From a virus (Duplodnaviria; Heunggongvirae; Uroviricota; Caudoviricetes), in IMG/VR virus record IMGVR_UViG_2541047705_000005: a stretch of 17,849 bases of DNA; one strand, written 5' to 3'. The number at the start of each line of letters is the position of its first letter. The stretch's first letter is position 1. A program made the position numbers and the translations under genes. Shown here in pieces: positions 1 to 17,849 of this stretch. The notes beneath the pieces were generated by a model. It saw only the letters and a program-made list of their open reading frames with translations. It made no database searches and had not been told where the DNA came from.

Positions 1-1254
1 ATGCTGGAACAAATGGGCATTGCCGCGAAGCAAGCCTCGTATAAATTAGCGCAACTCTCCAGCCGCGAAAAAAATCGTGTGCTGGAAAAAATCGCCGATG
101 AACTGGAAGCACAAAGCGAAAGTATCCTCAACGCTAACGCACAGGATGTTGCAGACGCGCGTGCCAATGGCCTTAGCGAAGCGATGCTTGACCGTCTGGC
201 ACTGACGCCCGCACGGCTGAAAGGCATTGCCGACGATGTGCGCCAGGTGTGCAATCTCGCCGATCCTGTGGGGCAGGTAATCGATGGCGGCGTACTGGAC
301 AGCGGCCTGCGTCTTGAGCGTCGTCGCGTACCGCTGGGGGTGATTGGCGTGATTTATGAAGCGCGCCCGAACGTGACGGTTGATGTTGCTTCCCTGTGCC
401 TGAAAACCGGTAACGCGGTGATCCTGCGCGGCGGCAAAGAAACCTGTCGCACTAACGCTGCAACGGTAGCGGTGATTCAGGACGCCCTGAAATCCTGCGG
501 CTTACCGGCGGGTGCCGTGCAGGCAATTGATAATCCTGACCGTGCGCTGGTCAGTGAAATGCTGCGTATGGATAAATACATCGACATGCTGATCCCGCGC
601 GGTGGGGCTGGTTTGCATAAACTGTGCCGCGAGCAGTCGACAATCCCGGTGATCACAGGCGGTATAGGCGTATGCCATATTTACGTTGATGAAAGTGCAG
701 AGATCGCTGAAGCCCTGAAAGTAATTGTCAACGCGAAAACTCAGCGACCGAGCACATGTAATACGGTAGAAACGTTGCTGGTAAATAAAAACATCGCAGA
801 TAGCTTCCTGCCCGCATTAAGCAAACAAATGGCGGAAAGCGGCGTGACGTTGCACGCTGATGCAGCCGCGCTGGCGCAGTTGCAGGCAGGCCCCGCGAAG
901 GTGGTGGCTGTTAAAGCCGAAGAGTATGACGATGAGTTTCTGTCATTAGATTTGAACGTCAAAATCGTTAGCGATCTGGATGACGCCATTGCCCATATTC
1001 GTGAACACGGCACGCAACACTCCGATGCGATCCTGACCCGCGATATGCGCAACGCCCAGCGTTTTGTTAACGAAGTGGATTCCTCCGCTGTTTACGTTAA
1101 CGCCTCTACGCGTTTTACCGACGGCGGCCAGTTTGGTCTGGGGGCGGAAGTTGCGGTAAGCACACAAAAACTCCACGCGCGCGGCCCAATGGGGCTGGAA
1201 GCTCTGACCACTTACAAGTGGATCGGCATTGGTGATTACACCATTCGTGCGTAA
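1..1254 (+). CDS. proA: Gamma-glutamyl phosphate reductase (glutamate-5-semialdehyde dehydrogenase), complete
   Basis: 417-aa ORF whose translation ([36 protein letters not shown]...[12 protein letters not shown]) I recognise as enterobacterial ProA; length matches E. coli ProA; ATG at position 1, TAA at 1252-1254. Confidence 0.95.
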
Positions 1255-1368: not shown

Positions 1369-1444
1369 GCCGATATAGCTCAGTTGGTAGAGCAGCGCAT
1401 TCGTAATGCGAAGGTCGTAGGTTCGACTCCTATTATCGGCACCA
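1369..1444 (+). tRNA. thrW: tRNA-Thr (anticodon CGU)
   Basis: 76-nt sequence GCCGATATAGCTCAGTTGGTAGAGCAGCGCATTCGTAATGCGAAGGTCGTAGGTTCGACTCCTATTATCGGCACCA: acceptor stem, D-loop AGCTCAGTTGGTAGAGC, anticodon loop with CGT, T-loop GGTTCGACTCC, encoded CCA; sits just downstream of proA as thrW does in E. coli. Confidence 0.93.
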
Positions 1445-1610: not shown

Positions 1611-2825
1611 GTGAAACTCAATGCCCGTCAAATAGACACTGCCAAGCCAAAAGAGAAGGCTTACAAGCTGGCTGATGGTGGTGGTCTGTATCTCTTGGTA
1701 AAACCTAGTGGAGGAAAATATTGGCGCTTCAAGTATCGTGTAGCTGGTAAAGAGAAGCTGTTAGCACTAGGTGTGTATCCTGAAGTTACCTTGGCTGATG
1801 CTCGTGCAAAACGTGAAGAAGCTAAAAGGGGTATCGCTGGGGGTATCGATCCGATGGAAGCGAAACGAGAGGAAAAGATTGCCCGGGAAACGCAGTTAAA
1901 CAACACCTTCAAAGATATTGCCCTTGAGTGGCACAGCAGCAAATTAAAAAAATGGTCTGCTGGTTATGCTTCAGACATCCTCGAAGCCTTCAACAAAGAT
2001 GTGTTCCCTTACATTGGCAAAAAACCAATCGCCGAAATCAAACCACTTGAACTGCTGAATGTGCTGCGGCGCATCGAGGGGCGCGGTGCTACCGAAAAAG
2101 CCAAAAAAGTGAGGCAGCGATGTGGGGAAGTTTTCCGCTATGCAATTGTCACTGGACGTGCTGAGTATAACCCTGCACCGGATCTCACCAGCGCGATGCA
2201 AGGTCATGAATCTAATCATTATCCTTTCCTCACAGCCAAAGAATTACCTGATTTTTTCAAGGCATTGTCCAGTTACTCAGGAAGTGCATTGGTTGTTATG
2301 GCGGCTCGTTTACTGATTATCACCGGTTTGCGGACTGGCGAACTGCGCGGTGCATTATGGGATGAAATCGATCTCAACAAGGCTATCTGGGAGATACCTG
2401 CTTCACGGATGAAAATGCGTCGCCCTCATGTAGTGCCTTTGTCTGAGCAGGCTCTTTCGCTTATTGGGCAGATTAAAGAACTAACTGGCAATTATCCGCT
2501 TATGTTTCCCGGCCGTAATGATCCAAGGAAAACAATGAGCGAGGCTAGCATAAACCAAGTATTTAAACGCATCGGCTATAACGGAAAGGTTACTGGTCAT
2601 GGCTTCCGGCACACTATGAGCACCATTTTGCATGAGCAGGGCTATAACACCGCGTGGATAGAGACACAGCTTGCGCACGTTGATAAAAACTCAATTCGTG
2701 GCACATACAACCATGCGCAATATCTGGATGGGCGGCGGGAAATGCTTCAGTGGTACGCTGATTATATGGATTCGCTCGAGCATGGCGGAAATGTGGTGCA
2801 TGGTGAGTTCGGAAAATGCGGGTGA
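1611..2825 (+). CDS. int: Tyrosine site-specific recombinase, P4-like integrase family
   Basis: 404-aa ORF starting MKLNARQIDTAKPKEKAYKLADGGGLYLLVKPSGGKYWRFKYR (typical P4-family N-terminus); C-terminal catalytic region with ...HGFRHTMSTILHEQGY... (H-x-x-R) and ...LAHVDKNSIRGTYNHAQY (catalytic Tyr region). GTG start at 1611 preceded by GGAGG; adjacent to a tRNA gene. Confidence 0.9.
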   Translation: MKLNARQIDTAKPKEKAYKLADGGGLYLLVKPSGGKYWRFKYRVAGKEKLLALGVYPEVTLADARAKREEAKRGIAGGIDPMEAKREEKIARETQLNNTFKDIALEWHSSKLKKWSAGYASDILEAFNKDVFPYIGKKPIAEIKPLELLNVLRRIEGRGATEKAKKVRQRCGEVFRYAIVTGRAEYNPAPDLTSAMQGHESNHYPFLTAKELPDFFKALSSYSGSALVVMAARLLIITGLRTGELRGALWDEIDLNKAIWEIPASRMKMRRPHVVPLSEQALSLIGQIKELTGNYPLMFPGRNDPRKTMSEASINQVFKRIGYNGKVTGHGFRHTMSTILHEQGYNTAWIETQLAHVDKNSIRGTYNHAQYLDGRREMLQWYADYMDSLEHGGNVVHGEFGKCG

Positions 2826-2953: not shown

Positions 2954-3751
2954 ATGATTGATATTCATGCCGAATTAAACGAATACAAAAAAGATTTTAT
3001 TTCTTTACGTGAATTTCTTGAGGTCGTGCTTAAGGTCGCTGGTGATGATTATGATGTTTCAGATGTCATAACTTGGATACTCAGGAGAATAAGCGGAGAA
3101 CATATCCGCCTGTACACAGTAAATGAATTTAAGCTGTTGGAATCTTTTTGTAACCCGTATCGGGATGAATTTGATAATGATGTTCTTTATAGAAATCTGA
3201 ATGCGGTTCGGAAACGTGGTTGTTTACCTGGTGAGAGGGATGAAAATGGTTTTCTGGTGTCCGGTTATTGGGAAGATCCCGAATTTGAGAACATTGGATT
3301 TATAAGGGGTGAAATTTTCGCAATTTTTCCCGATGTCCTTGACGCGTTAACGAAGCTGGAAGGCGCTAACTCTTCTGAAAATGACGAGGCACAAGGACGC
3401 GATATTGAAAAGAAAGAGTTGCGTACAGAGGATGATTTATTATCCCAAATCGCAATGCTGGAAAAAGAAAACGCAGAGTTAAGGGCAAGGATAGAGCAGT
3501 TAGAGCAAGAGCGCCCGATACACTTATATAAATACTGGGATAAAGACCCATTAGCTAAGGCTATTGAGATTAGAAACAGAGAGTGGGCCAATTACGATCC
3601 AGAAAATGATTTTGCCACCAGGGGAAATCAAGAAGCGATAACCAGGGAGCTTAAGCAGTGGGGGGCAAGTAATGCACTTGCAACGCTCATAGAGAGGACT
3701 GCCTGCCCTATTAACCGAGACAACAGTCAAAAGAACGCAAAGCCGGATTAA
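2954..3751 (+). CDS. Hypothetical protein with central coiled-coil (LLSQIAMLEKENAELRARIEQLEQE); function unknown
   Basis: ORF-track ORF 2948..3751; I prefer the ATG at 2954, which is 5 nt downstream of GAGGTG. No recognisable catalytic motif. Confidence 0.6.
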   Translation: MIDIHAELNEYKKDFISLREFLEVVLKVAGDDYDVSDVITWILRRISGEHIRLYTVNEFKLLESFCNPYRDEFDNDVLYRNLNAVRKRGCLPGERDENGFLVSGYWEDPEFENIGFIRGEIFAIFPDVLDALTKLEGANSSENDEAQGRDIEKKELRTEDDLLSQIAMLEKENAELRARIEQLEQERPIHLYKYWDKDPLAKAIEIRNREWANYDPENDFATRGNQEAITRELKQWGASNALATLIERTACPINRDNSQKNAKPD

Positions 3752-3765
3752 CGCACCATACCGCA

Positions 3766-3910
3766 TACCCTGAGGGTGATTTACTGTTACCCTGAGGGTA
3801 TTTTTTTATCTTCCCCGTCAATTTTACCATCACCCTTAGGGTAGATTTCCTCCCGATTACCATCACCCTTAGGGTAGATTTCCTTCCGGTAACCATTAGG
3901 CCTGAGGGTA
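3766..3910. promoter_or_regulatory. Array of five near-palindromic ACCCT-N-AGGGT sites (3766-3777, 3789-3799, 3832-3842, 3865-3875, 3900-3909), including a 27-bp direct repeat TACCATCACCCTTAGGGTAGATTTCCT x2, upstream of alpA
   Basis: Read directly from sequence; the dyad symmetry suggests binding sites for a dimeric regulator in the alpA promoter region. Confidence 0.45.
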
Positions 3911-3978
3911 TGAAAATATTCGTTATTTCTGTGCCATGATTACCTCGTCAAATTGAGTAGACGTTATGAGGTAAATAT

Positions 3979-4176
3979 ATGTCAAATACGCTTATTCGTT
4001 TAACAGAAGTTCAGCGTAGAACTGGATATAGCAAGGCATGGATTTATCGCCTTATGGGGCAAGGTAAATTTCCTGCATCAGTTAAAATTGGCTCGCGAGC
4101 TATTGCTTTCGTTGAGAGTGAAATTGACGAGTGGATTAATCAGCGTATTGCGGAATCACGCGGAACAGCTACCTGA
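3979..4176 (+). CDS. alpA: AlpA/Vis-family prophage transcriptional regulator (small HTH protein)
   Basis: 65-aa protein MSNTLIRLTEVQRRTGYSKAWIYRLMGQGKFPASVKIGSRAIAFVESEIDEWI, the characteristic AlpA pattern; GAGGT RBS; position after int is typical for P4-like elements and Gram-negative PICIs. Confidence 0.8.
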   Translation: MSNTLIRLTEVQRRTGYSKAWIYRLMGQGKFPASVKIGSRAIAFVESEIDEWINQRIAESRGTAT

Positions 4177-4253
4177 TTAAATGGCTACGGGGCTATTGCC
4201 CCCAGCTATCCACCAGCAAATAAAAGTAACTTAATTCGATAGCAGGAGTTTTT

Positions 4254-5054
4254 ATGAAATTTCCAAAAACGCCCGTACAGGGGCGGGGCTTCGTTCGGCC
4301 TGAAAACCAGAATCTGCAAAATTTCGGCGAAATTATCCCGATTATTTCCGGCGTTATTGGCGGGAGTGAAACCACTATTGTTAGCGCCAGAGCGTTACAT
4401 AAGGCGTTAGGTGTAGGGCGCGTTTTCCGTTCGTGGATCAAGGGGCGCATTGAAGAATATGGGTTCACGGAAGGCGTGGATTATGAGGTTGTTGAATATT
4501 TGAGCCGACCCGATCCGGTGAGCGCAAAATCTCGCCAGCAAACCGCTCTTGAGTACATCATCACAGTGAACATGGCGAAAGAACTGGCGATGGTCGAACG
4601 TACCGAACAGGGCCGCGCCGTTCGCCAGTACTTTATCAAATGCGAGGAGGAGCTACACAAGGTTGCGCCTGTTCGTTCCGCAGCGTTACGCCGGGAACTG
4701 AAAGCCCGTATCACAGTTGCCAGCTACTTTAAGCCAATGTGTGCCGCGCTGGAGGCGTACCGGGCTGAACTGGGTAAAAACACACTCCAGCACCACTACA
4801 CCACGGAAGCGAACATGCTGGCGCGTATCGTGCTGGGTGGCATGACTGCAAAACAGTGGGCACTGGCGAACGGCATTACAGGCGAACCACGCGACCACAT
4901 GAGCACGTTGCAGCTTGAGCACCTTTCTTACCTTGAGCAGAGCAATATCACGCTGATTGAGTTAGGCCAGGACTACCACCAGCGGAAGGCTGAATTAATT
5001 CGTCTTTCGCAGCGTTGGTTAGCCCGTCGCATGGAGGAAAACAGCCATGTGTAA
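4254..5054 (+). CDS. Phage antirepressor-like protein (AntA/AntB-type N-terminal domain)
   Basis: 266-aa ORF; N-terminal SARALHKALGVGRVFRSWIKGRIEEYGFTEGVDYEV and later ITVNMAKELAMVERTEQGRAVRQYFIKCEEEL resemble antirepressor motifs as I recall them; AGGAG RBS 6 nt upstream. Family assignment is from memory, not a search. Confidence 0.55.
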   Translation: MKFPKTPVQGRGFVRPENQNLQNFGEIIPIISGVIGGSETTIVSARALHKALGVGRVFRSWIKGRIEEYGFTEGVDYEVVEYLSRPDPVSAKSRQQTALEYIITVNMAKELAMVERTEQGRAVRQYFIKCEEELHKVAPVRSAALRRELKARITVASYFKPMCAALEAYRAELGKNTLQHHYTTEANMLARIVLGGMTAKQWALANGITGEPRDHMSTLQLEHLSYLEQSNITLIELGQDYHQRKAELIRLSQRWLARRMEENSHV

Positions 5055-5771
5055 CGCTCTGACCGTTACAAAAAGAGAAAGCGCCCCGTTGCCGGAGCGC
5101 CTTTGTGAACGAATAGCCTACTGCGCCATATTGCTTACTGTCTACGAGGCAGATTATAGCGTTGTGGTCGCACAGAGTGAAGGCGCTGATCACCGTTACT
5201 ACAGCACGCCAGAAATGCAGAATATTTTGCTGCAAAATGTCGTTGGTCACACTGTCCGGAAAGCAAAAAATTTTGCTGGTGGCGCGACTGATGCGATTTT
5301 GTCAGGTCGCCAGGTGCTGATCAATCTGATGTCTGATTTCGTTCTGGATAAAACAAAGGCGACCGCAGAGGGCCGCCAGTGGGAAAGCTACATACTTGAA
5401 CGCATCGCCAACAATGCCAGATTTGCGGCTGGTGGGCAATGTGTCAGCTTTGCACCAATGACTCTATGTTTAACTGAGGGTCATTATGGTGAATATGCTG
5501 GCTTGCTGGTGGGCTATTCCTGCTCTTTAACATTGCCATGCCGCGATGTTTTCCAGGTATGCGACCCCATTTTTGTGCACCTGTACTCTTTAAGGAATTT
5601 CTCAAGGACAAACGCACAGGGCGCGAATCTGTCTGACTCATGCTCGTACGCTATCTTTCTGCGCTGTCTTTTCCGTGCCGGTGATGGTGTATTGGTTGAT
5701 TCTTTGTTGGTCATGGCGCTGCCCTGTAAAATAATGCACCGTAGTTCCTCACACCACGGCACCTATAGTGG

Positions 5772-6044
5772 TTATTCCTGCTCTTTAGCTTTGCGCCGCT
5801 GGAGTTCTTCACGCGCGACGGTGACGAGTTGCCCGATTTCCTCGGCAGCTTTGACTCCGATTTTTTCCACCTGCGCTAGGGCATCGAGCGAAGAAACCAG
5901 GGGATTTTCTCCGCTTCCTTCTGCCTGGCGGCGGGCGATTTCACCGCGAACGGCTGTAATCACGAAAGCGGCTATTGTTTCCCCTTCCGTTTTCGAATTT
6001 TCCATTTCCTCGATTACATCATGGGGGAAGCGGATATTTTTCAT
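5772..6044 (-). CDS. Putative ribbon-helix-helix (CopG/Arc-like) DNA-binding protein, divergent from the replication operon
   Basis: Minus-strand ORF (track 5772..6077); internal start gives MKNIRFPHDVIEEMENSKTEGETIAAFVITAVRGEIARRQ, which fits the RHH N-terminal beta-strand/helix pattern. No clear SD for either start, so the start is uncertain. Confidence 0.45.
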   Translation of the reverse strand: MKNIRFPHDVIEEMENSKTEGETIAAFVITAVRGEIARRQAEGSGENPLVSSLDALAQVEKIGVKAAEEIGQLVTVAREELQRRKAKEQE

Positions 6045-6168
6045 TTGCGATCTGCTGTTGATGTTTCCTGTTGCCATCAGAATGTCCGGTTATTTTGAGG
6101 TGTGTACACATTACACCAAAAGGTGTGTTGATAAAACACTTGACACTGTAGCACACTTAAATTTAATT

Positions 6169-6201
6169 TGTATATACACCAATTGTTGTGGTGTATATAC
6201 A
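6169..6201. promoter_or_regulatory. Perfect 12-bp inverted repeat TGTATATACACC-N9-GGTGTATATACA (candidate operator) in the divergent intergenic region; a TTGACA hexamer lies at 6140-6145
   Basis: Read directly; lies between the minus-strand RHH ORF and the plus-strand operon starting at 6268. Confidence 0.45.
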
Positions 6202-6267
6202 GCAACGCCCCGCAGTGGTGGCACACATGCAGGGCGTCTAACCAAACCGTTAAACGAGGTAACGATT

Positions 6268-6633
6268 ATGGCTGGAACACAGCATACCCAAACTCACCCT
6301 AAATTTATATACACCTTCCTGGCGGTGCACCGTGATTGCATTGCTGACGGTAAAAACACTGTACACGTAGCCGCCGATACGCTGGTTGATGCCTGCGAGA
6401 TGCTCAATGACATGGGCTATATCTCGGCAACATGGAAAGGGCGCGAAGAAAACACGCTGTTTATTCAGAAATGCGAAAACAATTTTATCTGGCGTTTTAT
6501 CGCCCTGAGTACGGCACAACCGCGCGTGATTCACATCGAGGCCACCAGCGAACAGGAAGCACGCCAGCAATCTCCTGATGGCTGCGTGATGGTATTCGCT
6601 GCCCGTATTCGCCAGGAGGTGGAGCATGTGTAA
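6268..6633 (+). CDS. Hypothetical protein (first gene of replication-module operon)
   Basis: ATG at 6268 preceded by GAGGT; it is the 3' part of the stop-free track ORF 5047..6633; the stop overlaps the next start (CATGTGTAA junction). Confidence 0.6.
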   Translation: MAGTQHTQTHPKFIYTFLAVHRDCIADGKNTVHVAADTLVDACEMLNDMGYISATWKGREENTLFIQKCENNFIWRFIALSTAQPRVIHIEATSEQEARQQSPDGCVMVFAARIRQEVEHV

Positions 6634-6850
6634 TGCAACATGGCCTGATGCAGCGGTAGACGCTATCAAAACGCTGATGGATTCACTTATTGAGATTTCT
6701 GCTATCGCTGGTGTGGCGCATAAACACGCAGCCAGAGAATCAGAATGCATCTCCCATTATTTAGCATTTGTGCAGCTGAAAGCCGATCAGGCACTGGATA
6801 AGGCCGGAAAAATTATCATGGCTGATGTACAGGAGGTGCACCATGCATAA
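6626..6850 (+). CDS. Hypothetical small protein
   Basis: 74-aa ORF, start overlaps upstream stop (translational coupling). Confidence 0.5.
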   Translation: MCNATWPDAAVDAIKTLMDSLIEISAIAGVAHKHAARESECISHYLAFVQLKADQALDKAGKIIMADVQEVHHA

Positions 6851-7208
6851 CCTGTCAATTTCTGACCTTAACAGCATTCAGTTTGACGAGATATTTTCCG
6901 GGCAGCTACTGGTCAACGTGGAGAATGGACGCGTGGTAAGTAATTATCACCTGCCGGATGGTGCAATTGCCGGAAGCGTTGAAGCATTGCTGGAGCTGGC
7001 GGAACGTGCGCGACTGATTAAGCCGTCAACGTGCCATCACGATGATGATCTGCATTTTACCGGGTGTATGGTGAGTCACTACGAAAACGGCGTTGAAGTA
7101 TCCTGCGAACGTCTGCGTGATGATTGCTGTTTCGGCACACTGCCGGAATTTATCGAATTGCTGACCAGTTGCGGTTATCAGGTCATTCAGGGGGGTAAAC
7201 ATGCGTGA
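6843..7208 (+). CDS. Hypothetical protein
   Basis: Track ORF 6825..7208; I prefer the ATG at 6843 (MHNLSISDL...) preceded by CAGGAGGT; overlaps the upstream stop by 8 nt. Confidence 0.55.
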   Translation: MHNLSISDLNSIQFDEIFSGQLLVNVENGRVVSNYHLPDGAIAGSVEALLELAERARLIKPSTCHHDDDLHFTGCMVSHYENGVEVSCERLRDDCCFGTLPEFIELLTSCGYQVIQGGKHA

Positions 7209-7434
7209 TGATCGTTTTAATTCCCTGAAACAGGAGTTTGATGGCGCACCGGAAGATACATCGGGCGCATTGTTGAGCATTGCTGACATGATGAAAGCTG
7301 CATATTTTCTTATCAATACCAGTGGCTACAAGTCAGAGGGTGAAATGATTCTTAGTATTGCGTCGGACTATGCTGAATATGTGGCAGAGACGCGTTACAG
7401 AAGAAAATCTCTGGAGGATGTAAGCCATGCATAA
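7201..7434 (+). CDS. Hypothetical small protein
   Basis: 77-aa ORF; ATG overlaps the upstream TGA. Confidence 0.5.
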   Translation: MRDDRFNSLKQEFDGAPEDTSGALLSIADMMKAAYFLINTSGYKSEGEMILSIASDYAEYVAETRYRRKSLEDVSHA

Positions 7435-7631: not shown

Positions 7632-7922
7632 ATGAAAAAGAAAAATTCTGGCTTTACTGCCAGCGGCCTCTCTCGGCCTGAAATCCGCCCCGGTGATATT
7701 TTCCGGGACACCAGACGCGGGGGACGGGTGGTTATTCGTCACGTTACGCCAGGCAATATCACCTACCGCCGTGAGGCTTACGAATATGACTGCGTAATGC
7801 CGCGCCGTCAGTTTGAGCGTGATTTTATTCTGGTGGAAAACAAACAACAGGCAGTGGCGAGACGTGCAGCCACGAATATTAAAAAAATCCGGGCAATGTT
7901 GGTTGCGGGAGGTAAGAAGTGA
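7632..7922 (+). CDS. Hypothetical small basic protein
   Basis: 96-aa ORF; its stop overlaps the GTG start of the primase-like gene. Confidence 0.5.
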   Translation: MKKKNSGFTASGLSRPEIRPGDIFRDTRRGGRVVIRHVTPGNITYRREAYEYDCVMPRRQFERDFILVENKQQAVARRAATNIKKIRAMLVAGGKK

Positions 7923-9724
7923 AAAACGCACCGAATTTAAAATATCAGCCGAAGGATAAATTCACCGAGGTAATCATTTTTGCCGGGACGGATGCTTACG
8001 CCCATGCTCAACACTGGATTGAAAGCGAAGGACGAAAACACGGCGATAACGTGCCTCCTGTTTACCTGGGGCCAAAGCAACTGGCAGACCTGGCGAATAT
8101 CCGCATTGTCGACGATGAACGTCGCTTTGCGCGTGTCTATCTCGCGGGGGAGATAGAGCCAATCCAGATCAATGCTATTGCTGAAAAGCTGGCGCTGGCT
8201 GGTGTACAGGACGCGAAATTATACAAAGGTATCACCGACCGGGAGCCGGAAAACTGGCGCGACTACCTGCAACGGATCCGCGAACAGGCAGAGAGTGGGG
8301 AAGTTTCAGCGATGAAATTAGCCACAAAAAATATTGACCTATCCAGGCCAGCACTAAATCAGATGGGAGCCAGCCAGAGAGGGGAAGTGTTACTTGAATA
8401 TTATGGAAGAGCACTGGCTATAAATGATGATTCTGATGTAGTTCACCATTACAACGGAATTGTCTGGGTGCCTGTATCTGATAAGGAACTCCAGCGGTCT
8501 ATGGCGAAGATTTTTATTGATGCTGGAATCAGTTATTCGCAAAACGCCATTAAATTTGCCGTAGACACAATGAAATTGAGCCTGCCTGTTATGGGCGGGG
8601 CAGACAGGAATCTTATTGGATTCAGTAACGGGGTATTTGATACCCGGACGGGAAATTTTCGGGAGCATAACAAAAATGACTGGTTGTTAAATGCCAGTGA
8701 ATTACCGTTCAGCCCACCAGCAGAGGGGGAAACGCTGGCAACACATGCGCCGAATTTCTGGAAGTGGCTGCGTCGTTCGGTGGCAGATAATGAGCGTAAA
8801 GCTGATCGCGTACTGGCGGCATTATTCATGGTACTGGCGAACCGGTACGACTGGCAGTTATTCCTTGAGGTAACAGGCCCAGGCGGAAGCGGTAAAAGTG
8901 TGATGGCTGAGATTTGTACCATGCTGGCGGGTAAGGCCAACACAGTATCGGCAAGCATGAAGGCTCTGGAAGACGCAAGGGAACGCGCGTTAGTAGTTGG
9001 CTTTTCGCTGATTATCATGCCGGATATGACTCGCTACGCTGGCGATGGTGCAGGAATTAAGGCAATTACTGGCGGCGACAAGGTGGCAATTGATCCGAAA
9101 CATAAAGCCCCCTACTCCACACGTATTCCGGCAGTAGTGCTTGCGGTAAACAATAACGCCATGTCATTCAGTGACCGAAGCGGGGGGATCTCGCGTCGTA
9201 GGGTGATATTTAATTTCTCTGAGGTCGTACCGGAGAACGAACGCGATCCCATGCTGGCGGAAAAGATAGAAGGCGAACTGGCGGTAGTGATTCGCCATTT
9301 GCTAACACGATTTACCGACCAGGACGAAGCTAAAAGACTACTTTATGAGCAGCAAAAATCAGAAGAAGCGCTGTTGATAAAGCGCGAAGGTGATTCACTG
9401 GTGGACTTTTGCGGCTATCTGATGTCGTTGGTTAAATGTGAAGGAATGATGGTGGGCAATGCGGAAATAGTGCCATTTAGCCCGAGGCGATACCTGTATC
9501 ATGCTTATTTAGCCTATATGTCAGCGCATGGCCTGGGAAAACCAGTATCACTGACACGCTTTGGTACTGATATGCCAGGAGCTATGGCGGAATACGGAAA
9601 GGAGTATAAGCGGGCTAAATGCACTAAAGGCCCGGATAAAGGGCGAGTGATAACAAATGTTCTGTTAGATGATGATGCTGATGGCTGGTTGCCAGCAGCT
9701 ACAGGGATTAACGACAGAACATAA
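7919..9724 (+). CDS. Primase/helicase-like replication initiator (P4-alpha / D5-type NTPase family)
   Basis: 601-aa ORF, GTG start after GGGAGGT; Walker A P-loop LEVTGPGGSGKSVMAEI in the C-terminal half; last gene of a coupled operon and followed immediately by an iteron array, as expected for satellite pri/rep genes. Confidence 0.75.
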   Translation: MKNAPNLKYQPKDKFTEVIIFAGTDAYAHAQHWIESEGRKHGDNVPPVYLGPKQLADLANIRIVDDERRFARVYLAGEIEPIQINAIAEKLALAGVQDAKLYKGITDREPENWRDYLQRIREQAESGEVSAMKLATKNIDLSRPALNQMGASQRGEVLLEYYGRALAINDDSDVVHHYNGIVWVPVSDKELQRSMAKIFIDAGISYSQNAIKFAVDTMKLSLPVMGGADRNLIGFSNGVFDTRTGNFREHNKNDWLLNASELPFSPPAEGETLATHAPNFWKWLRRSVADNERKADRVLAALFMVLANRYDWQLFLEVTGPGGSGKSVMAEICTMLAGKANTVSASMKALEDARERALVVGFSLIIMPDMTRYAGDGAGIKAITGGDKVAIDPKHKAPYSTRIPAVVLAVNNNAMSFSDRSGGISRRRVIFNFSEVVPENERDPMLAEKIEGELAVVIRHLLTRFTDQDEAKRLLYEQQKSEEALLIKREGDSLVDFCGYLMSLVKCEGMMVGNAEIVPFSPRRYLYHAYLAYMSAHGLGKPVSLTRFGTDMPGAMAEYGKEYKRAKCTKGPDKGRVITNVLLDDDADGWLPAATGINDRT

Positions 9725-14750: not shown

Positions 14751-15977
14751 ATGATTGCAGGCGCGAAAAGAGGGAGAAACGAACGCAAGGGGCTTCACTC
14801 TTGGCATCCATACTATGCGGGCTATTCAGAGTCATTTGTGGCTTCTGTTTTGCAGGCTGAAGGAGTTAAGTCGTCCGCTACCGTTCTTGATCCTTGGATG
14901 GGAAGCGGTACCACTGGTATAGTTTGTCAAAAGCAAACCATAAAGTGTATTGGAGCAGATATTAATCCTGTAATGAGCTATTTTGCTGCAGCCAAAAGTA
15001 GGGATAATATTTCAGCGCTGGATTATACCGGAGAGCAACTCCTGGAAAGGATACTGCTTTGCTTTAGAAAAAAAACAAAAGATATAACTGAGTCATCGAA
15101 GGGCTATCCACTTATTGAACAGTTACAAAAGTTTTATAAATGTATCTGTGATCAGTTTATGGATAAAGGACAAAATGATATCGTAAATCCTTTAAAAGCA
15201 TTTTATTGCAGTGTTTTATTTTATACTGTTCGCAATGTCCTTGATGTTAGGTCAACTTCAAATCCTACATGGATTTCTAAAAAAGTAGACTTTAATAATA
15301 AATTTGATATTTGTTTTGAATATAATAAAAATTTTAAAATTATGCGTGAGCAGTTAAGTGAATATTATGGCAGCGCTAATGGGGGGGCATGTTACTCGAT
15401 TTTAAACGTGGATAGTAAAAAATTAAATATTAAAAGTAACACAATTGATCTTGTTATTACATCGCCACCGTATTTAACACGAATAGACTATGCCGTTTCT
15501 ACTCGTCTTGAGTTGGAAATAATTTTAGGGAGTGAGGGATATAAGTCTCTTAGAAAGGAAATGATGGGCACGACGACTGTGCCTAAAGTTGCGGATGAAA
15601 TTAATAAAAAATGGGGGCCATTGTGTATGGATGTTTTGTCATCGGTAACATCGCATACATCAAGAGCATCTGGAAGTTATTACCTTAAAAATAAAATTAG
15701 ATATTTTTCTGATGCGTATGAGTCATTAATGGAAATCTTTAGAGTTTTAAAGGTAGGTTGCTCTGGTTATTTTGTAATACAAAATTCATATTATAAGGAA
15801 ATAGAGATTCCGCTTTATGATATTTATTGTGAAATGGCGCTTTCTATTGGGTTTTCAGAAGCGAAATGTGTGAGAGAAGATCAAGTTAAAGCAATATTTG
15901 GACAAATAAATACCAAGTCAAAAAATTATATTAAAGATAAAGTTTATTTTGAAAAAATCATAAGGATAACAAAATGA
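14751..15977 (+). CDS. DNA methyltransferase (amino-methyltransferase: N4-cytosine or N6-adenine), motif I before motif IV
   Basis: 408 aa; SAM-binding motif I VLDPWMGSGTTG (14889-14918) and catalytic motif IV SPPY in DLVITSPPYLTRIDYA (15462-15473); AT-rich codon usage; stop overlaps next start (ATGA). Confidence 0.8.
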   Translation: MIAGAKRGRNERKGLHSWHPYYAGYSESFVASVLQAEGVKSSATVLDPWMGSGTTGIVCQKQTIKCIGADINPVMSYFAAAKSRDNISALDYTGEQLLERILLCFRKKTKDITESSKGYPLIEQLQKFYKCICDQFMDKGQNDIVNPLKAFYCSVLFYTVRNVLDVRSTSNPTWISKKVDFNNKFDICFEYNKNFKIMREQLSEYYGSANGGACYSILNVDSKKLNIKSNTIDLVITSPPYLTRIDYAVSTRLELEIILGSEGYKSLRKEMMGTTTVPKVADEINKKWGPLCMDVLSSVTSHTSRASGSYYLKNKIRYFSDAYESLMEIFRVLKVGCSGYFVIQNSYYKEIEIPLYDIYCEMALSIGFSEAKCVREDQVKAIFGQINTKSKNYIKDKVYFEKIIRITK

Positions 15978-17086
15978 ATGACGTAACTAAATTGCTATCT
16001 CAGATAGATGAAAAAAGAGATGAGGTAGTAACTGATTCTTATACCATATCATGGCGTGAAGTAATTAATCTATATAAAGAAAATGAGATAACCATTTCTC
16101 CAGACTACCAAAGGCTTTTTCGTTGGGATAACGCAAGACAAAGCCAATTTATCGAGTCATTACTTTTAAATATACCTACGCCAACACTTTTTTTCTACAT
16201 TGATAATAATGGTAAGCAGGAGGTTATCGATGGATTGCAACGTGTGAGTACTATAATTAGATTTTTTTCAGAGGATATTTTTAATAAGGAAGAAATAGAT
16301 AATGCAAAGAAACAAAACTCTGTAAATGATGTCCGTAATCCAACTGTTCTTGATGATGTGCCTATAATTACAGAATTAAATGGATGGACTGCAAAAGGAT
16401 TGCCGGACAAAGTTAGCCGAACTATAAAAAATGCGCGAGTAAATGTTGTTATTTTGGAGCAAGAAACAAAACCTGAAACTAAATATAATGTTTTTAAACG
16501 ACTGAATAGGTCTGGTGTTCGTTTGAGTGACCAGGAAATACGTAATTGCATGGCTAGATTAGCAGGGAATGAATTTGCAGATCGCTTACGTAAGATGGCC
16601 GAAATTGATGGTATTGTTCAAGCTCTTGGAATAAATGAAGATGGCCAAAAATCTCAAGGTGTTGAGGAAGCTTTGCTACGAGTTATGGCATCTTTGACTT
16701 ATGCGGATAAATTTAGCCATAGTGTAACTGACTTTTTGGATGAATTTATGTTCTACGCGGCAGAACATAATGTTATTGATATTAATTTTGAATTAAAAAT
16801 AAAAAGAACTTTTGATTTGATAAATATTGCTGGTTTATCTGGTAAAGCATTTAAATTTAGAAAGGATGGTGCTCCAAGTGGCCCGTTTAGTACTAATTTA
16901 TTAGATGTTGTTGCTGTTGGTATTTTTAGTAATGTAGATAATTTAACACCTGCTGAGGTGGCGAAAAGATTTGATTATTTAATGGATGGTGAGATCAAAG
17001 AATTAAGAGCTTGTACTGGTTCTGGATCTAATACTAAAGCCAAATTAGAGAAAAGAATCGCTCTTGGGAAGAAGGTGTTTGGATAA
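15974..17086 (+). CDS. DUF262 (ParB/Srx-like NTPase domain) protein, stand-alone (no DUF1524/HNH domain evident)
   Basis: 370 aa; N-terminal signature PDYQRLFRW...IESLLLNIPTPTLFF...VIDGLQRVSTII (DGQQR-type motif, 16229-16243); AAGGA RBS; translationally coupled to the methyltransferase. Confidence 0.8.
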   Translation: MNDVTKLLSQIDEKRDEVVTDSYTISWREVINLYKENEITISPDYQRLFRWDNARQSQFIESLLLNIPTPTLFFYIDNNGKQEVIDGLQRVSTIIRFFSEDIFNKEEIDNAKKQNSVNDVRNPTVLDDVPIITELNGWTAKGLPDKVSRTIKNARVNVVILEQETKPETKYNVFKRLNRSGVRLSDQEIRNCMARLAGNEFADRLRKMAEIDGIVQALGINEDGQKSQGVEEALLRVMASLTYADKFSHSVTDFLDEFMFYAAEHNVIDINFELKIKRTFDLINIAGLSGKAFKFRKDGAPSGPFSTNLLDVVAVGIFSNVDNLTPAEVAKRFDYLMDGEIKELRACTGSGSNTKAKLEKRIALGKKVFG

Positions 17087-17087
17087 A

Positions 17088-17849
17088 ATGAGAATATCAG
17101 ATTTCGATGATTTCAAGGTGATGTTGGAAAAGACGAAAAATGAAAGTCTTGGATTCCTTGAGAGCATAAAGTCTATTAATGAGTTTATGTCGAGATCAGG
17201 TGATAAAGACAAGGAGGATATGTTTAGAATAATATCGGTCCCAATGATTTATTCTTCTTGGGAGGGTTTTTTTACTGAAACAATGTCAGTTTGCTTAAAT
17301 ACATTGAAACTCTCAGATAGAGAAGCATTTAGATACTCTGCAGAAATTCGAGCACTTTGGTTGCAACGAGAACCATTTTATAGCAAGTATGTAGATATGA
17401 TAAAAAATATTTATGATGCTGACTCACACCGAAGCATTGTCCATAATGGCGCCCAAATAAAAAAGAAAGTTACGAAGGGGGCGTTTAAACTAACAAGTGA
17501 GGTAATTCAACACATTGACAGGTTTAATAAATCCACATTATCAGATTGCGATGTTTCTGAATTAGTTATGACATTTTCCAATGTGAATGAAATGGTTGTC
17601 AAGGTGAATTTCGATGCTATAGGTTTGGATTATTCATTACTTGATTTATCGCAACTAGGTGAGGTTGTTGGCCTTAGAAATTCTTTGGGACATGGGGAGT
17701 TTAAAAGTAGTGTTAACCCTAGGAAATTTAATTCAATAATTGTGTATGTGGAAAATCTGATCATCGATTTGAATCAATGTGCTATAACGTGGTTGGATAA
17801 ATTAGAAGATGAAATAACTAAGCCTGAAGATAATGAGACTATTCAGTGA
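17088..17849 (+). CDS. Predicted all-alpha protein with C-terminal Rx4H motif (LRNSLGHGEF); putative HEPN-domain RNase effector
   Basis: Track ORF 17064..17849 uses a TTG; I prefer the ATG at 17088, 10 nt after GAAGGTG. R-N-S-L-G-H at 17676-17693 fits the HEPN Rx4-6H motif; stop TGA is the last codon of the window. The HEPN call rests on motif and composition only. Confidence 0.5.
   Translation: MRISDFDDFKVMLEKTKNESLGFLESIKSINEFMSRSGDKDKEDMFRIISVPMIYSSWEGFFTETMSVCLNTLKLSDREAFRYSAEIRALWLQREPFYSKYVDMIKNIYDADSHRSIVHNGAQIKKKVTKGAFKLTSEVIQHIDRFNKSTLSDCDVSELVMTFSNVNEMVVKVNFDAIGLDYSLLDLSQLGEVVGLRNSLGHGEFKSSVNPRKFNSIIVYVENLIIDLNQCAITWLDKLEDEITKPEDNETIQ

Follow-up and report, generated by a model that had tools for sequence, protein, structure and literature searches.

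The DNA examined here, IMG/VR virus record IMGVR_UViG_2541047705_000005 (Duplodnaviria; Heunggongvirae; Uroviricota; Caudoviricetes), is 17,849 nucleotides long and is referred to as a whole as the window. It is an EcCICFT073-type phage-inducible chromosomal island (PICI), a phage satellite, integrated at thrW in Escherichia coli: an integrase gene (int) at one end is followed in the same orientation by an alpA-type regulator gene, and the island has its own downstream primase/replication module, homologous to those of known PICIs. Positions 4200-7300 are 100% identical to the chromosome of E. coli E189, whose RefSeq annotation supplies the gene names used below (window coordinate = locus coordinate minus 3801). 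This segment has matches in 1597 of 5426 complete E. coli genomes, and satellites like the window's have matches in 1597-1841 of them. The rightward alpA-antA operon and the rightward icd-primase operon are separated by a regulatory cassette read leftward, which comprises a YlcI/YnfO-family gene and an optional further small gene, together with the terminators of these genes and a divergent operator/promoter region. The subject of this study is a plus-strand reading frame that stays open through all of this DNA, from the end of antA into the Icd-like gene, and that we call the bridge (Table 1).

The bridge was first reported in a preliminary description made from the sequence alone, and it is as described there, forming part of a plus-strand open reading frame (ORF) of 528 aa that runs from an ATG at 5047 to 6633. 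Over 5047-6267 its frame contains no stop codon, compared with 20 and 22 stops in the other two plus frames and 12-16 in the minus frames. The start had likewise been read correctly: the Shine-Dalgarno (SD) sequence GGAGGA precedes the ATG by 8 nt, and the ATG in turn overlaps the stop codon of AntA (CAT GTG TAA, 5046-5054). This ATG/SD junction is invariant in all 32 metagenome loci introduced below. Both CATGTGTAA junctions pointed out earlier are present, CATGTGTAAYGC recurring at 6625-6636, and the ATGnnTAA type of 8-nt overlap seen at the bridge start also joins at least four later gene pairs of the operon.

The bridge enters in frame the first gene of the replication operon, the Icd-like gene, which had been called clearly real and which is indeed under purifying selection (synonymous:non-synonymous changes 30:15). 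The family model covers only the last 48 residues: phage_ICD_like (NF033153, a 48-residue model) matches residues 480-523 of the 528-aa ORF with 75.5 bits against a cut-off of 25 (2.4e-21), and the first 479 residues lie outside this family. The Icd-like gene of the window resembles a tandem of two Icd-type modules, phrog_1743 matching it in two stretches, and its first 20 residues share 65% identity with the start of a 62-aa Icd of Rahnella. Other islands have a short, one-module Icd, and far longer Icd-frame products occur at loci L026, L027, and L100.

Beneath the bridge, the YlcI/YnfO gene is embedded antisense, in the phase in which the third codon positions of the two strands coincide. 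A profile-profile comparison links it to Arc/HicB-like repressors found in the same slot of other islands (91.8%, E 7e-7), and one of these same-slot repressors matches Pfam HicB, a ribbon-helix-helix (RHH) domain, above the cut-off, with weak matches to RHH_1 and Arc. The window's own YlcI/YnfO protein has no direct match to a Pfam RHH model, and sequence searches of the PDB gave no significant match for the repressor, the best match of the profile being the Mnt repressor (E 0.38). Because of the profile match to the same-slot Arc/HicB-like repressors, the gene likely encodes an RHH repressor of the switch. This protein would bind the repeats at 6099-6201, which include an inverted repeat that is perfect, as had been noted, with arms of 13 nt rather than 12 (6169-6181 / 6189-6201). 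The inverted repeat overlaps the -10 element and the start site of a site at 6140-6167 that is probably the promoter of the Icd operon; a strict promoter scan missed it because position 2 of its -10 element is T. Closer to Icd, the hairpin at 6205-6237 shows three compensatory pairs in an alignment fold, with energies of -19.5 kcal/mol on the plus strand and -23.1 kcal/mol on the minus strand. On the minus strand, several variants of this hairpin have a T-run behind them and may also terminate leftward transcription.

The upstream part of the bridge lies opposite the terminator of this leftward operon. The hairpin at 5078-5103 folds with -22.6 kcal/mol (z -5.3), and a search with its 19-nt core recovered 33 sequence variants, EcCICFT073 included, in all of which its context is near-invariant. 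Nucleotides 1-64 of the ORF are themselves near-invariant (two variable positions) because they hold this conserved minus-strand terminator, and 5055-5325 is thus the 3′ untranslated region of the leftward repressor operon, with its terminator. A promoter-like site (5153-5181) stands on the minus strand about 44 nt upstream of the hairpin, and from it a cis-antisense RNA of ~78 nt is predicted, running from ~5146 to 5068 on the minus strand and complementary to bridge codons ~8-33; the terminator at 5068-5103 is the predicted end of both this RNA and the repressor operon. The promoter hexamers persist (TTCACA/TAAAAT) in an allele with ~50% diverged flanks, and the EcCICFT073 type has an extended -10 (TGATATAAT) at the same ~44-nt distance from the hairpin, so that hexamers and terminator keep a fixed spacing in three diverged lineages. 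A consensus fold of the predicted RNA contains the invariant terminator only, its 5′ parts not aligning between lineages. No Rfam family matches it, a weak ctRNA match covering the terminator hairpin alone, and neither a second copy nor a trans target of it was found within the window. For C4 / CI-type immunity RNA (RF01695), searches of the entire window (E up to 1) and of 5030-5200 (E up to 10) gave no match; a c4-type immunity RNA was rejected as an explanation. In CFT073 (locus L132, 7715-7766), a GC-rich hairpin without a T-run (GGCGGCACACAGCCGCC) lies between the alpA stop and the ATG of the EcCICFT073 bridge.

Further into the bridge, a comparison of ORF architecture and DNA junctions identifies an optional 447-bp cassette that is present in long forms of the frame and absent from 283-aa forms; all of its 149 codons are open in the bridge frame. 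It carries a minus-strand terminator and gene H, whose coding signature is weak and which also lies in the wobble-matched antisense phase of the bridge. Two 25-bp direct repeats had been described here, and they are present, with 22 of 25 positions identical, at coordinates a few bases from those first given (now 5512-5536 and 5770-5794, 258 nt or 3 x 86 apart). As also described, each copy holds the ...KEQE-TAA end of a minus-strand ORF (5514-5714/5762 and 5772-6077). In cassette-less islands, ...VLIN is joined straight to YSCSLALRRW, which is the single repeat copy; in the window, the 447 bp sit at this point and have a second copy at their end. It follows that gene H and the RHH gene share homologous 3′ ends (KEQE-stop), which are the repeats and which mark the cassette boundary. 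The earlier suggestion of a duplication or insertion scar thus holds for the repeats, as shared gene 3′ ends bordering the cassette, and fails for the remainder of the frame. The alternative suggestion of an unannotated regulatory/RNA region was partly right, given the two minus-strand terminators, the predicted antisense-RNA promoter, the operators, and the conserved hairpin. A scan of the bridge span for intrinsic terminators found clear sites on the minus strand and no strong site on the plus strand, where there are weak 5-pair ones only.

Table 1. Features of the bridge region and selected genes of the window. Positions are those of the 17,849-nt stretch; cells are empty where nothing is specified.
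Feature	Position	Strand	Evidence and remarks
proA	1-1254		RefSeq E189
tRNA-Thr	1369-1444		RefSeq E189
Integrase gene (int)	1611-2825		RefSeq E189; followed by a hypothetical gene
AlpA-like helix-turn-helix (HTH) regulator gene, 65 aa	3979-4176	plus	RefSeq: HTH transcriptional regulator
AntA/AntB-family antirepressor gene	4254-5054	plus	Pfam AntA 2.5e-23; stop overlaps bridge start
Translational-coupling junction ATGTGTAA	5033-5054	plus	SD GGAGGA 5033-5038, bridge ATG 5047, AntA stop TAA 5052-5054
Bridge	5047-6267	plus	407 stop-free codons in frame with Icd, without amino-acid constraint
Intrinsic terminator	5068-5103	minus	11-bp GC-rich hairpin 5078-5103, then U-tract UUUCUCUUUUU
Sigma-70 promoter-like site	5153-5181	minus	-35 TTCACT, 17 nt, -10 TATAAT; 10/12 match
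Optional 447-bp cassette (149 codons)	5326-5772		Carries minus-strand terminator and gene H; ORF-architecture and DNA-junction comparison
Second terminator-like hairpin and U-tract	5358-5377	minus	Downstream of gene H; fold -14.2 kcal/mol, z -3.4
Direct repeat, copy 1	5512-5536		Holds KEQE-TAA end of gene H
Gene H, 66 aa, putative	5514-5714	minus	RefSeq WP_071849567.1; phrog_21027 at 4e-31
Direct repeat, copy 2	5770-5794		KEQE-TAA end of RHH gene; sole copy in cassette-less islands
YlcI/YnfO-family gene, putative RHH repressor	5772-6077	minus	NCBIfam YlcI_YnfO_N (NF041551), 64.2 bits vs cut-off 30, E 8e-18
Operator region	6099-6201		GGTGT/ACACC half-sites at 6099, 6113, 6122, 6176, 6190; perfect 13-nt inverted repeat
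Likely Icd-operon promoter	6140-6167	plus	TTGACA-16 nt-TTTAAT, read from sequence
Conserved GC-rich hairpin	6205-6237		~30 nt upstream of Icd SD; bridge translation ...TPRSGGTHAGRL...
Icd-like gene, long type, 121 aa	6268-6633	plus	Own SD GAGG 6256-6259 and ATG; RefSeq CDS
Second CATGTGTAAYGC junction	6625-6636	plus	Icd stop meets next gene's start (6626-6850)
DUF5906 primase	7632-9724		RefSeq E189; preceded by DUF4222

Related loci were gathered at the DNA level to avoid gene-caller bias, giving one set of 32 metagenome loci (29 of them complete), recovered with the first 93 codons as the DNA query, and a second set of 80 IMG/VR loci found by the Icd C-terminal domain alone. About 100 loci recovered by one or the other route keep the frame open, for 283-650 codons. 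Beginning where the upstream alpA/antA/bro operon stops and reaching into the Icd gene, it crosses the antisense terminator, one to three minus-strand genes (with at least six RHH repressor types), and non-homologous operator regions. Among the complete metagenome loci, 28 of 29 are open from the ATG to the Icd start codon, with ORFs of 283-534 aa; in the remaining one (L028), the bridge ends 32 nt before the Icd ATG. One of those counted as open (L033) has a truncated Icd and then an HNH gene. In this locus (~3780-4300), Icd is cut after ~24 codons and the HNH/AP2-like gene that comes next is joined by an ATGnnTGA overlap. All 57 unique IMG/VR loci with a detectable RHH gene keep the plus frame open over the entire repressor gene and the operators into Icd. 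The preliminary description had proposed to look for an ancestral stop in homologous islands and had taken a conserved full-length protein as the mark of a real long gene. No ancestral stop is seen in the ~100 loci, and what they conserve over its full length is the open frame and not a protein, an outcome that had not been foreseen.

The same holds for islands at other att sites whose upstream gene is a BRO-N fragment, BRO, or alpA itself. The frame is open there over 347-479 codons; it originates at the stop of the BRO gene (ATGTGTAA once more), at the first codon of a BRO-N remnant that lies 53 nt past alpA, or 20 nt past alpA. In the prototype EcCICFT073, it is open for 428 codons, at about 1379766-1381052 of NC_004431.1. 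The longest frame, of 650 codons, is found on IMG/VR contig 2737471855_000016 (L105, 1704-3656), where it passes stop-free through two successive repressor/operator modules; a remnant Icd start lies between the two modules. Overall, the bridged DNA is a mosaic of at least six different small repressor genes, an optional gene of 66-82 aa, a small membrane-like gene, and at least six operator/promoter variants. Every embedded minus-strand gene is in the one antisense phase where third codon positions coincide, which is the least stop-prone phase, and phase and openness are kept in all independent modules, insertions, and deletions. Raw blastn gaps are mostly 1-2 nt and fall in divergent blocks; after cleaning, one 6-nt event and one 1-nt event at a module junction remain. 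The fusion to Icd is not required, since several islands end the bridge just before or just after the Icd ATG: in the roxA-site lineage (three loci sampled: KSC1031, P27_L1_05.20, and clone D i14), a 401-codon bridge ends ~20 nt before it, and in strain RM10466, a 352-codon bridge ends 10 nt after it. The invariant feature is an open frame that reaches the Icd initiation region.

By contrast with this conservation of the frame, the encoded peptide shows no sign of constraint. Across 33 sequences of the first 93 codons, variable columns are distributed 32:30:31 over the three codon positions, and synonymous:non-synonymous changes are ~30:70 in all six frames. The control gene AntA, from the same loci, gives 40:38:94 by codon position and 94:98 in its true frame, and the Icd control gives the in-frame 30:15 already mentioned. 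The RHH gene gives 38:39 in its own frame, compared with ~10:65 in unrelated frames, and the signal in the part of the bridge antisense to it is that of the opposite-strand gene. The excess of third-position or synonymous change expected of an ordinary coding gene is thus absent from 5047-6267. No match to Pfam, NCBIfam, or PHROG was found for 5047-5541 or for the non-Icd part of the ORF, and a phage tblastn search with the first 165 residues gave no match. A protein search with these 165 residues returned mostly "Icd-like / ash family" proteins of 283-287 aa, in which the same ~93 residues come first, the middle is un-protein-like, and the Icd domain follows. Between island types the N-termini are unrelated (MCNALTV..., a BRO-N fragment, or MNITKS...). 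Base composition by codon position over 5047-5513 (G+C of 0.57/0.43/0.48) is similar to that of Icd.

The absence of stops is far from what chance would give. When everything alignable by blastn was removed, 716 codons of non-redundant sequence were left, with no stop in the bridge frame vs 42 and 43 in the other two. A wider set of 2022 codons has none vs 111 and 144, although part of that set, for example the BRO-N remnant, is truly coding in this frame. Chance was modelled by dinucleotide shuffles of the non-genic parts and by synonymous recoding of the embedded minus-strand genes. The 467 nt of 5047-5513, a 3′ untranslated part, would be open by chance with P 0.0006, and each of seven operator/intergenic variants, some of them partly homologous, with P 0.007-0.04. 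Recoding leaves the frame open with P 0.13-0.32 for each small minus gene alone, so the "shadow ORF" effect is real but small. The joint chance probability of a stop-free frame is ~1.7e-7 for the window alone and ~1e-20 over all modules, taken as independent. Selection acts on the openness of the frame and not on the peptide.

As to what an open frame without a selected product would be for, we lean towards a model in which the bridge is translated and, coupled to the upstream operon, takes AlpA-driven transcripts antisense through the repressor module into the icd-primase operon without Rho polarity. The translation, the read-through from the alpA promoter, and the role of Rho are all matters that we infer. 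Rho targets untranslated nascent RNA, antisense RNA included (PMC5909445), and a transcript whose bridge is translated would never present a long untranslated antisense stretch to it. Work on EcCICFT073 has shown that helper phages turn on alpA, that AlpA stimulates its own promoter as well as an "ORF3" reporter fusion, and that over-expression of AlpA alone induces PICI replication (PMC6092414). Gene order suggests that this "ORF3" is the bridge.

Under the proposed model, a helper phage would switch alpA on, AlpA would auto-activate its own promoter, and transcription would continue through antA, with ribosomes re-initiating at ATGTGTAA and translating close behind RNA polymerase. Translation would open the antisense terminator hairpin and shield 0.7-1.9 kb of otherwise untranslated antisense RNA from Rho. 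The polymerase-ribosome pair would then traverse the repressor gene, whose convergent transcription it would disturb, and go on through the operators with repressor bound. Ribosomes would arrive at the Icd start in frame or within about 13-32 nt of it, from where the chain of 8-nt coupling overlaps would go on to the primase gene. In the quiescent state, the predicted ~78-nt antisense RNA would block or cleave leaky transcripts, which Rho would then terminate.

Several observations weigh against this model. The equation of "ORF3" with the bridge is based on gene order and not on coordinates in PMC6092414, and the Icd operon has its own likely promoter, so that read-through may not be the main route of its expression. 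A search of genome contigs with the Icd profile returned only three loci, one of them irrelevant, and one gave a counter-example, a Rahnella island that has the same RHH-Icd switch and no bridge. The bridge is also absent where the accessory gene upstream of the repressor is on the minus strand (L125-127), and its absence there and in the Rahnella relative means that the device is not obligatory for this type of satellite. L095-type islands keep only the downstream part of the bridge, and the bridges of L040 and L105 have no obvious ATG coupled to the upstream gene. In addition, GC skew makes the plus strand mildly C-rich across the bridge, so there is no obvious rut site.

This last point is also in keeping with a neighbouring reading, to which we give appreciable but clearly smaller weight: that selection does favour translation itself, though not as a shield from Rho. 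It might protect a long mRNA from RNases, help polymerase to win head-on collisions or to push through bound repressor, silence the repressor by translated antisense transcription, or deliver ribosomes to Icd. All of the stop-avoidance without peptide constraint fits such purposes equally well, as do a GC skew without a strong rut signature and the constant position of the bridge end, at or within the initiation region of Icd. Nothing in the present data separates this version from the one involving Rho. We count against it that the icd/ant operon of phage P1 is reportedly controlled via translation-dependent Rho termination, a finding said to be that of Biere, Citron and Schuster in 1992. Moreover, a long untranslated antisense RNA is a textbook substrate of Rho (PMC5909445).

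It is also conceivable, though in our judgement unlikely, that the ORF encodes a functional protein in which the Icd domain has a long, fast-evolving, low-complexity N-terminal extension, with the repressor genes overprinted on the linker. Most loci are in frame with Icd (28/29 and 57/57 in the two sets), and many such ORFs are annotated in RefSeq as "Icd-like / ash family" proteins. A protein of this kind is hard to reconcile with a unique N-terminal part that lacks codon-position and synonymous bias, with N-termini that are unrelated between island types, and with the lack of any family match beyond the last 48 residues. The middle is swapped for non-homologous modules, its sequence being dictated by opposite-strand genes and operators, and several islands stop the frame just before or after the Icd ATG.

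Far less probable is a chance or shadow ORF, i.e., a frame that is naturally stop-poor because it lies antisense to real genes with coinciding wobble positions, one lucky sequence having been inherited by all islands. Recoded minus-strand genes do leave the frame open with P 0.13-0.32, and many of the loci are close relatives. Yet the non-genic parts are open too (P 0.0006 for the 3′ untranslated part; P 0.007-0.04 for each operator/intergenic variant), phase and openness persist through independent modules, insertions, and deletions, and the counts of 0 stops vs 42 and 43 are taken from non-redundant sequence; stop counts and open non-genic parts together effectively refute this explanation. 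The earlier idea of a short real gene from 5047 that lost its stop in this strain and runs on by accident could appeal to a good SD, an ATG overlapping the upstream stop, and the Icd-like G+C by codon position over 5047-5513, but it is hardly credible and is refuted by the homologues, since the frame is open in ~100 loci with very different middles, none retaining an ancestral stop, and since the first 93 codons show neither a coding signature nor purifying selection on the peptide, their first 60 nt being an antisense terminator and not a conserved protein.

If the bridge does carry ribosomes past Rho, it would resemble several known systems in part. The immI operon of phages P1 and P7 is said, after Riedel et al. 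in 1993 and Biere, Citron and Schuster in 1992, to consist of the c4 antisense RNA, icd, and ant. Both it and the window place an Icd-family ORF together with an antirepressor gene in a translationally coupled operon, although the gene order is reversed here (ant, bridge, icd). In immI, translation of an upstream ORF is needed to prevent Rho-dependent termination, and an antisense RNA of ~77 nt gates that translation. The antisense RNA predicted here is of similar size (~78 nt), but it would be cis-encoded opposite its target and does not match the Rfam C4 family, and the ORF that it would gate has hundreds of codons and lies antisense to a repressor gene. Leaders of the tnaC and mgtL type are 10-30 codons long and sense a metabolite. 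As predicted here for the bridge, translation of an ORF with a (nearly) irrelevant product decides Rho termination of the downstream genes, whereas the bridge has 283-650 codons, spans whole opposite-strand genes, and has no evident sensing function. In anti-termination by lambda N and Q and by P4 Psu, dedicated proteins act on RNA polymerase or on Rho (PMC3526286 for N). The predicted goal is the same, escape of a mobile element's long transcripts from Rho, but here ordinary ribosomes on an ORF kept for the purpose would do the job. The bridge would then be a ribosome-based answer to the problem that lambda and P4 solve with dedicated proteins.

Two further comparisons concern the antisense arrangement. 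In the excludon of Listeria, a long antisense transcript represses one operon and serves as mRNA for its neighbour (reviewed in PMC7154746). Similarly, the transcript of one operon is predicted here to run antisense through a divergent regulatory gene and then to be mRNA for an operon of opposite function. The antisense segment of the excludon is described as non-coding, whereas that of the bridge is a stop-free frame under selection, which implies translation. In E. coli O157:H7, short ORFs overlapping genes in antisense, such as ano, have been proposed to make functional proteins (PMC5960689; PMC9927249). They share with the bridge an ORF antisense to annotated genes and the context of a mobile element in pathogenic E. 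coli. The bridge, however, contains annotated genes rather than lying inside one, and its peptide is unconstrained. Our search of the literature found no description of such a stop-free bridge frame, which joins known principles (translational coupling, Rho polarity, and excludon-like antisense read-through) in a form not described before. There is a substantial, though less than even, chance of a new kind of regulatory device, in which being translated would be the sole purpose of a long "nonsense" ORF. Ribosomes on it would form an anti-termination bridge that takes activator-driven transcription backwards across the repressor gene and operators of the satellite itself, with a cis-antisense RNA gating entry.

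The closest relative is EcCICFT073 (Fillol-Salom et al., 2018; PMC6092414), with which the window shares homologous DNA and the series int, alpA, bridge, minus-strand YlcI/YnfO, Icd-like, small coupled ORFs, DUF4222, primase, and PerC. Its 428-codon bridge is of like build. In the EcCICFT073 family (strain NCTC86), identity over the terminator segment is ~91% and the order of modules is the same as in the window. The window's island differs in its position at thrW and in having an AntA gene between alpA and the bridge. Helper-phage induction, packaging, and transfer have been demonstrated for EcCICFT073 (PMC6092414). As published, PICIs have no known repressor, transcription is supposed to be rightward only, and "ORF3" is an ordinary gene (PMC6092414). 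In the present analysis, by contrast, there is a leftward cassette with a probable repressor gene inside that ORF, and the ORF has no protein-like constraint.

Set against that description of one-direction transcription without a repressor, our analysis points to three elements: a leftward cassette with a probable RHH repressor, hidden inside an annotated "ORF3 / Icd-like / ash family" protein; an antisense RNA, which is predicted; and a frame in which selection bears on nothing but the lack of stops. If this is true, the repressor and the induction logic so far missing from the picture of Gram-negative PICIs would be provided by the bridge and the embedded RHH gene. Such islands occur in roughly a third of complete E. 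coli genomes, and the model can be tested in the existing genetic system of CFT073. There is also a consequence for annotation, as the RefSeq "Icd-like" and "ash family" proteins of ~284 aa are probably not conventional proteins, and the repressor genes under the long frame are sometimes left unannotated, as in strain THO-008. In that strain (L043, 2220-3152), RefSeq gives a 310-aa "Icd-like protein" and omits the minus-strand YlcI/YnfO gene beneath it; annotation of the bridge locus is inconsistent between genomes. In E189, RefSeq leaves a gap without annotation at 5055-5513.

With regard to the neighbouring genes, the AlpA-like gene at 3979-4176 is the first of the rightward operon feeding the bridge, and the gene at the equivalent position in a related island of strain GF43 is annotated as "AlpA family". 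Downstream of the Icd-like gene, RefSeq E189 lists a chain of small ORFs, DUF4222, the DUF5906 primase, ProQ/FinO, and PerC. Between 6626 and 7922 on the plus strand, the small ORFs are chained by 8-nt ATGnnTAA/TGA overlaps (stops at 6633, 6850, 7208, and 7434), followed by a 4-nt overlap into the primase gene, which suggests obligatory translational coupling along the whole replication operon. Directly downstream of the integrase gene, the Rfam int-alpA RNA motif (RF02996) matches 2870-2937 on the plus strand (45.5 bits against a gathering score of 35.8). Two tandem small hairpins (TACCCTGAGGGTG / TACCCTGAGGGTA) occur at 3766-3800 on the plus strand, with a T-run after the second copy. They separate the hypothetical gene 2954-3751 from the alpA-like gene and may serve as a terminator immediately before the promoter region of alpA. 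Towards its right end (14751-17849, plus strand), the island holds a DNA methyltransferase gene and other large ORFs, possibly defence or restriction-modification cargo.

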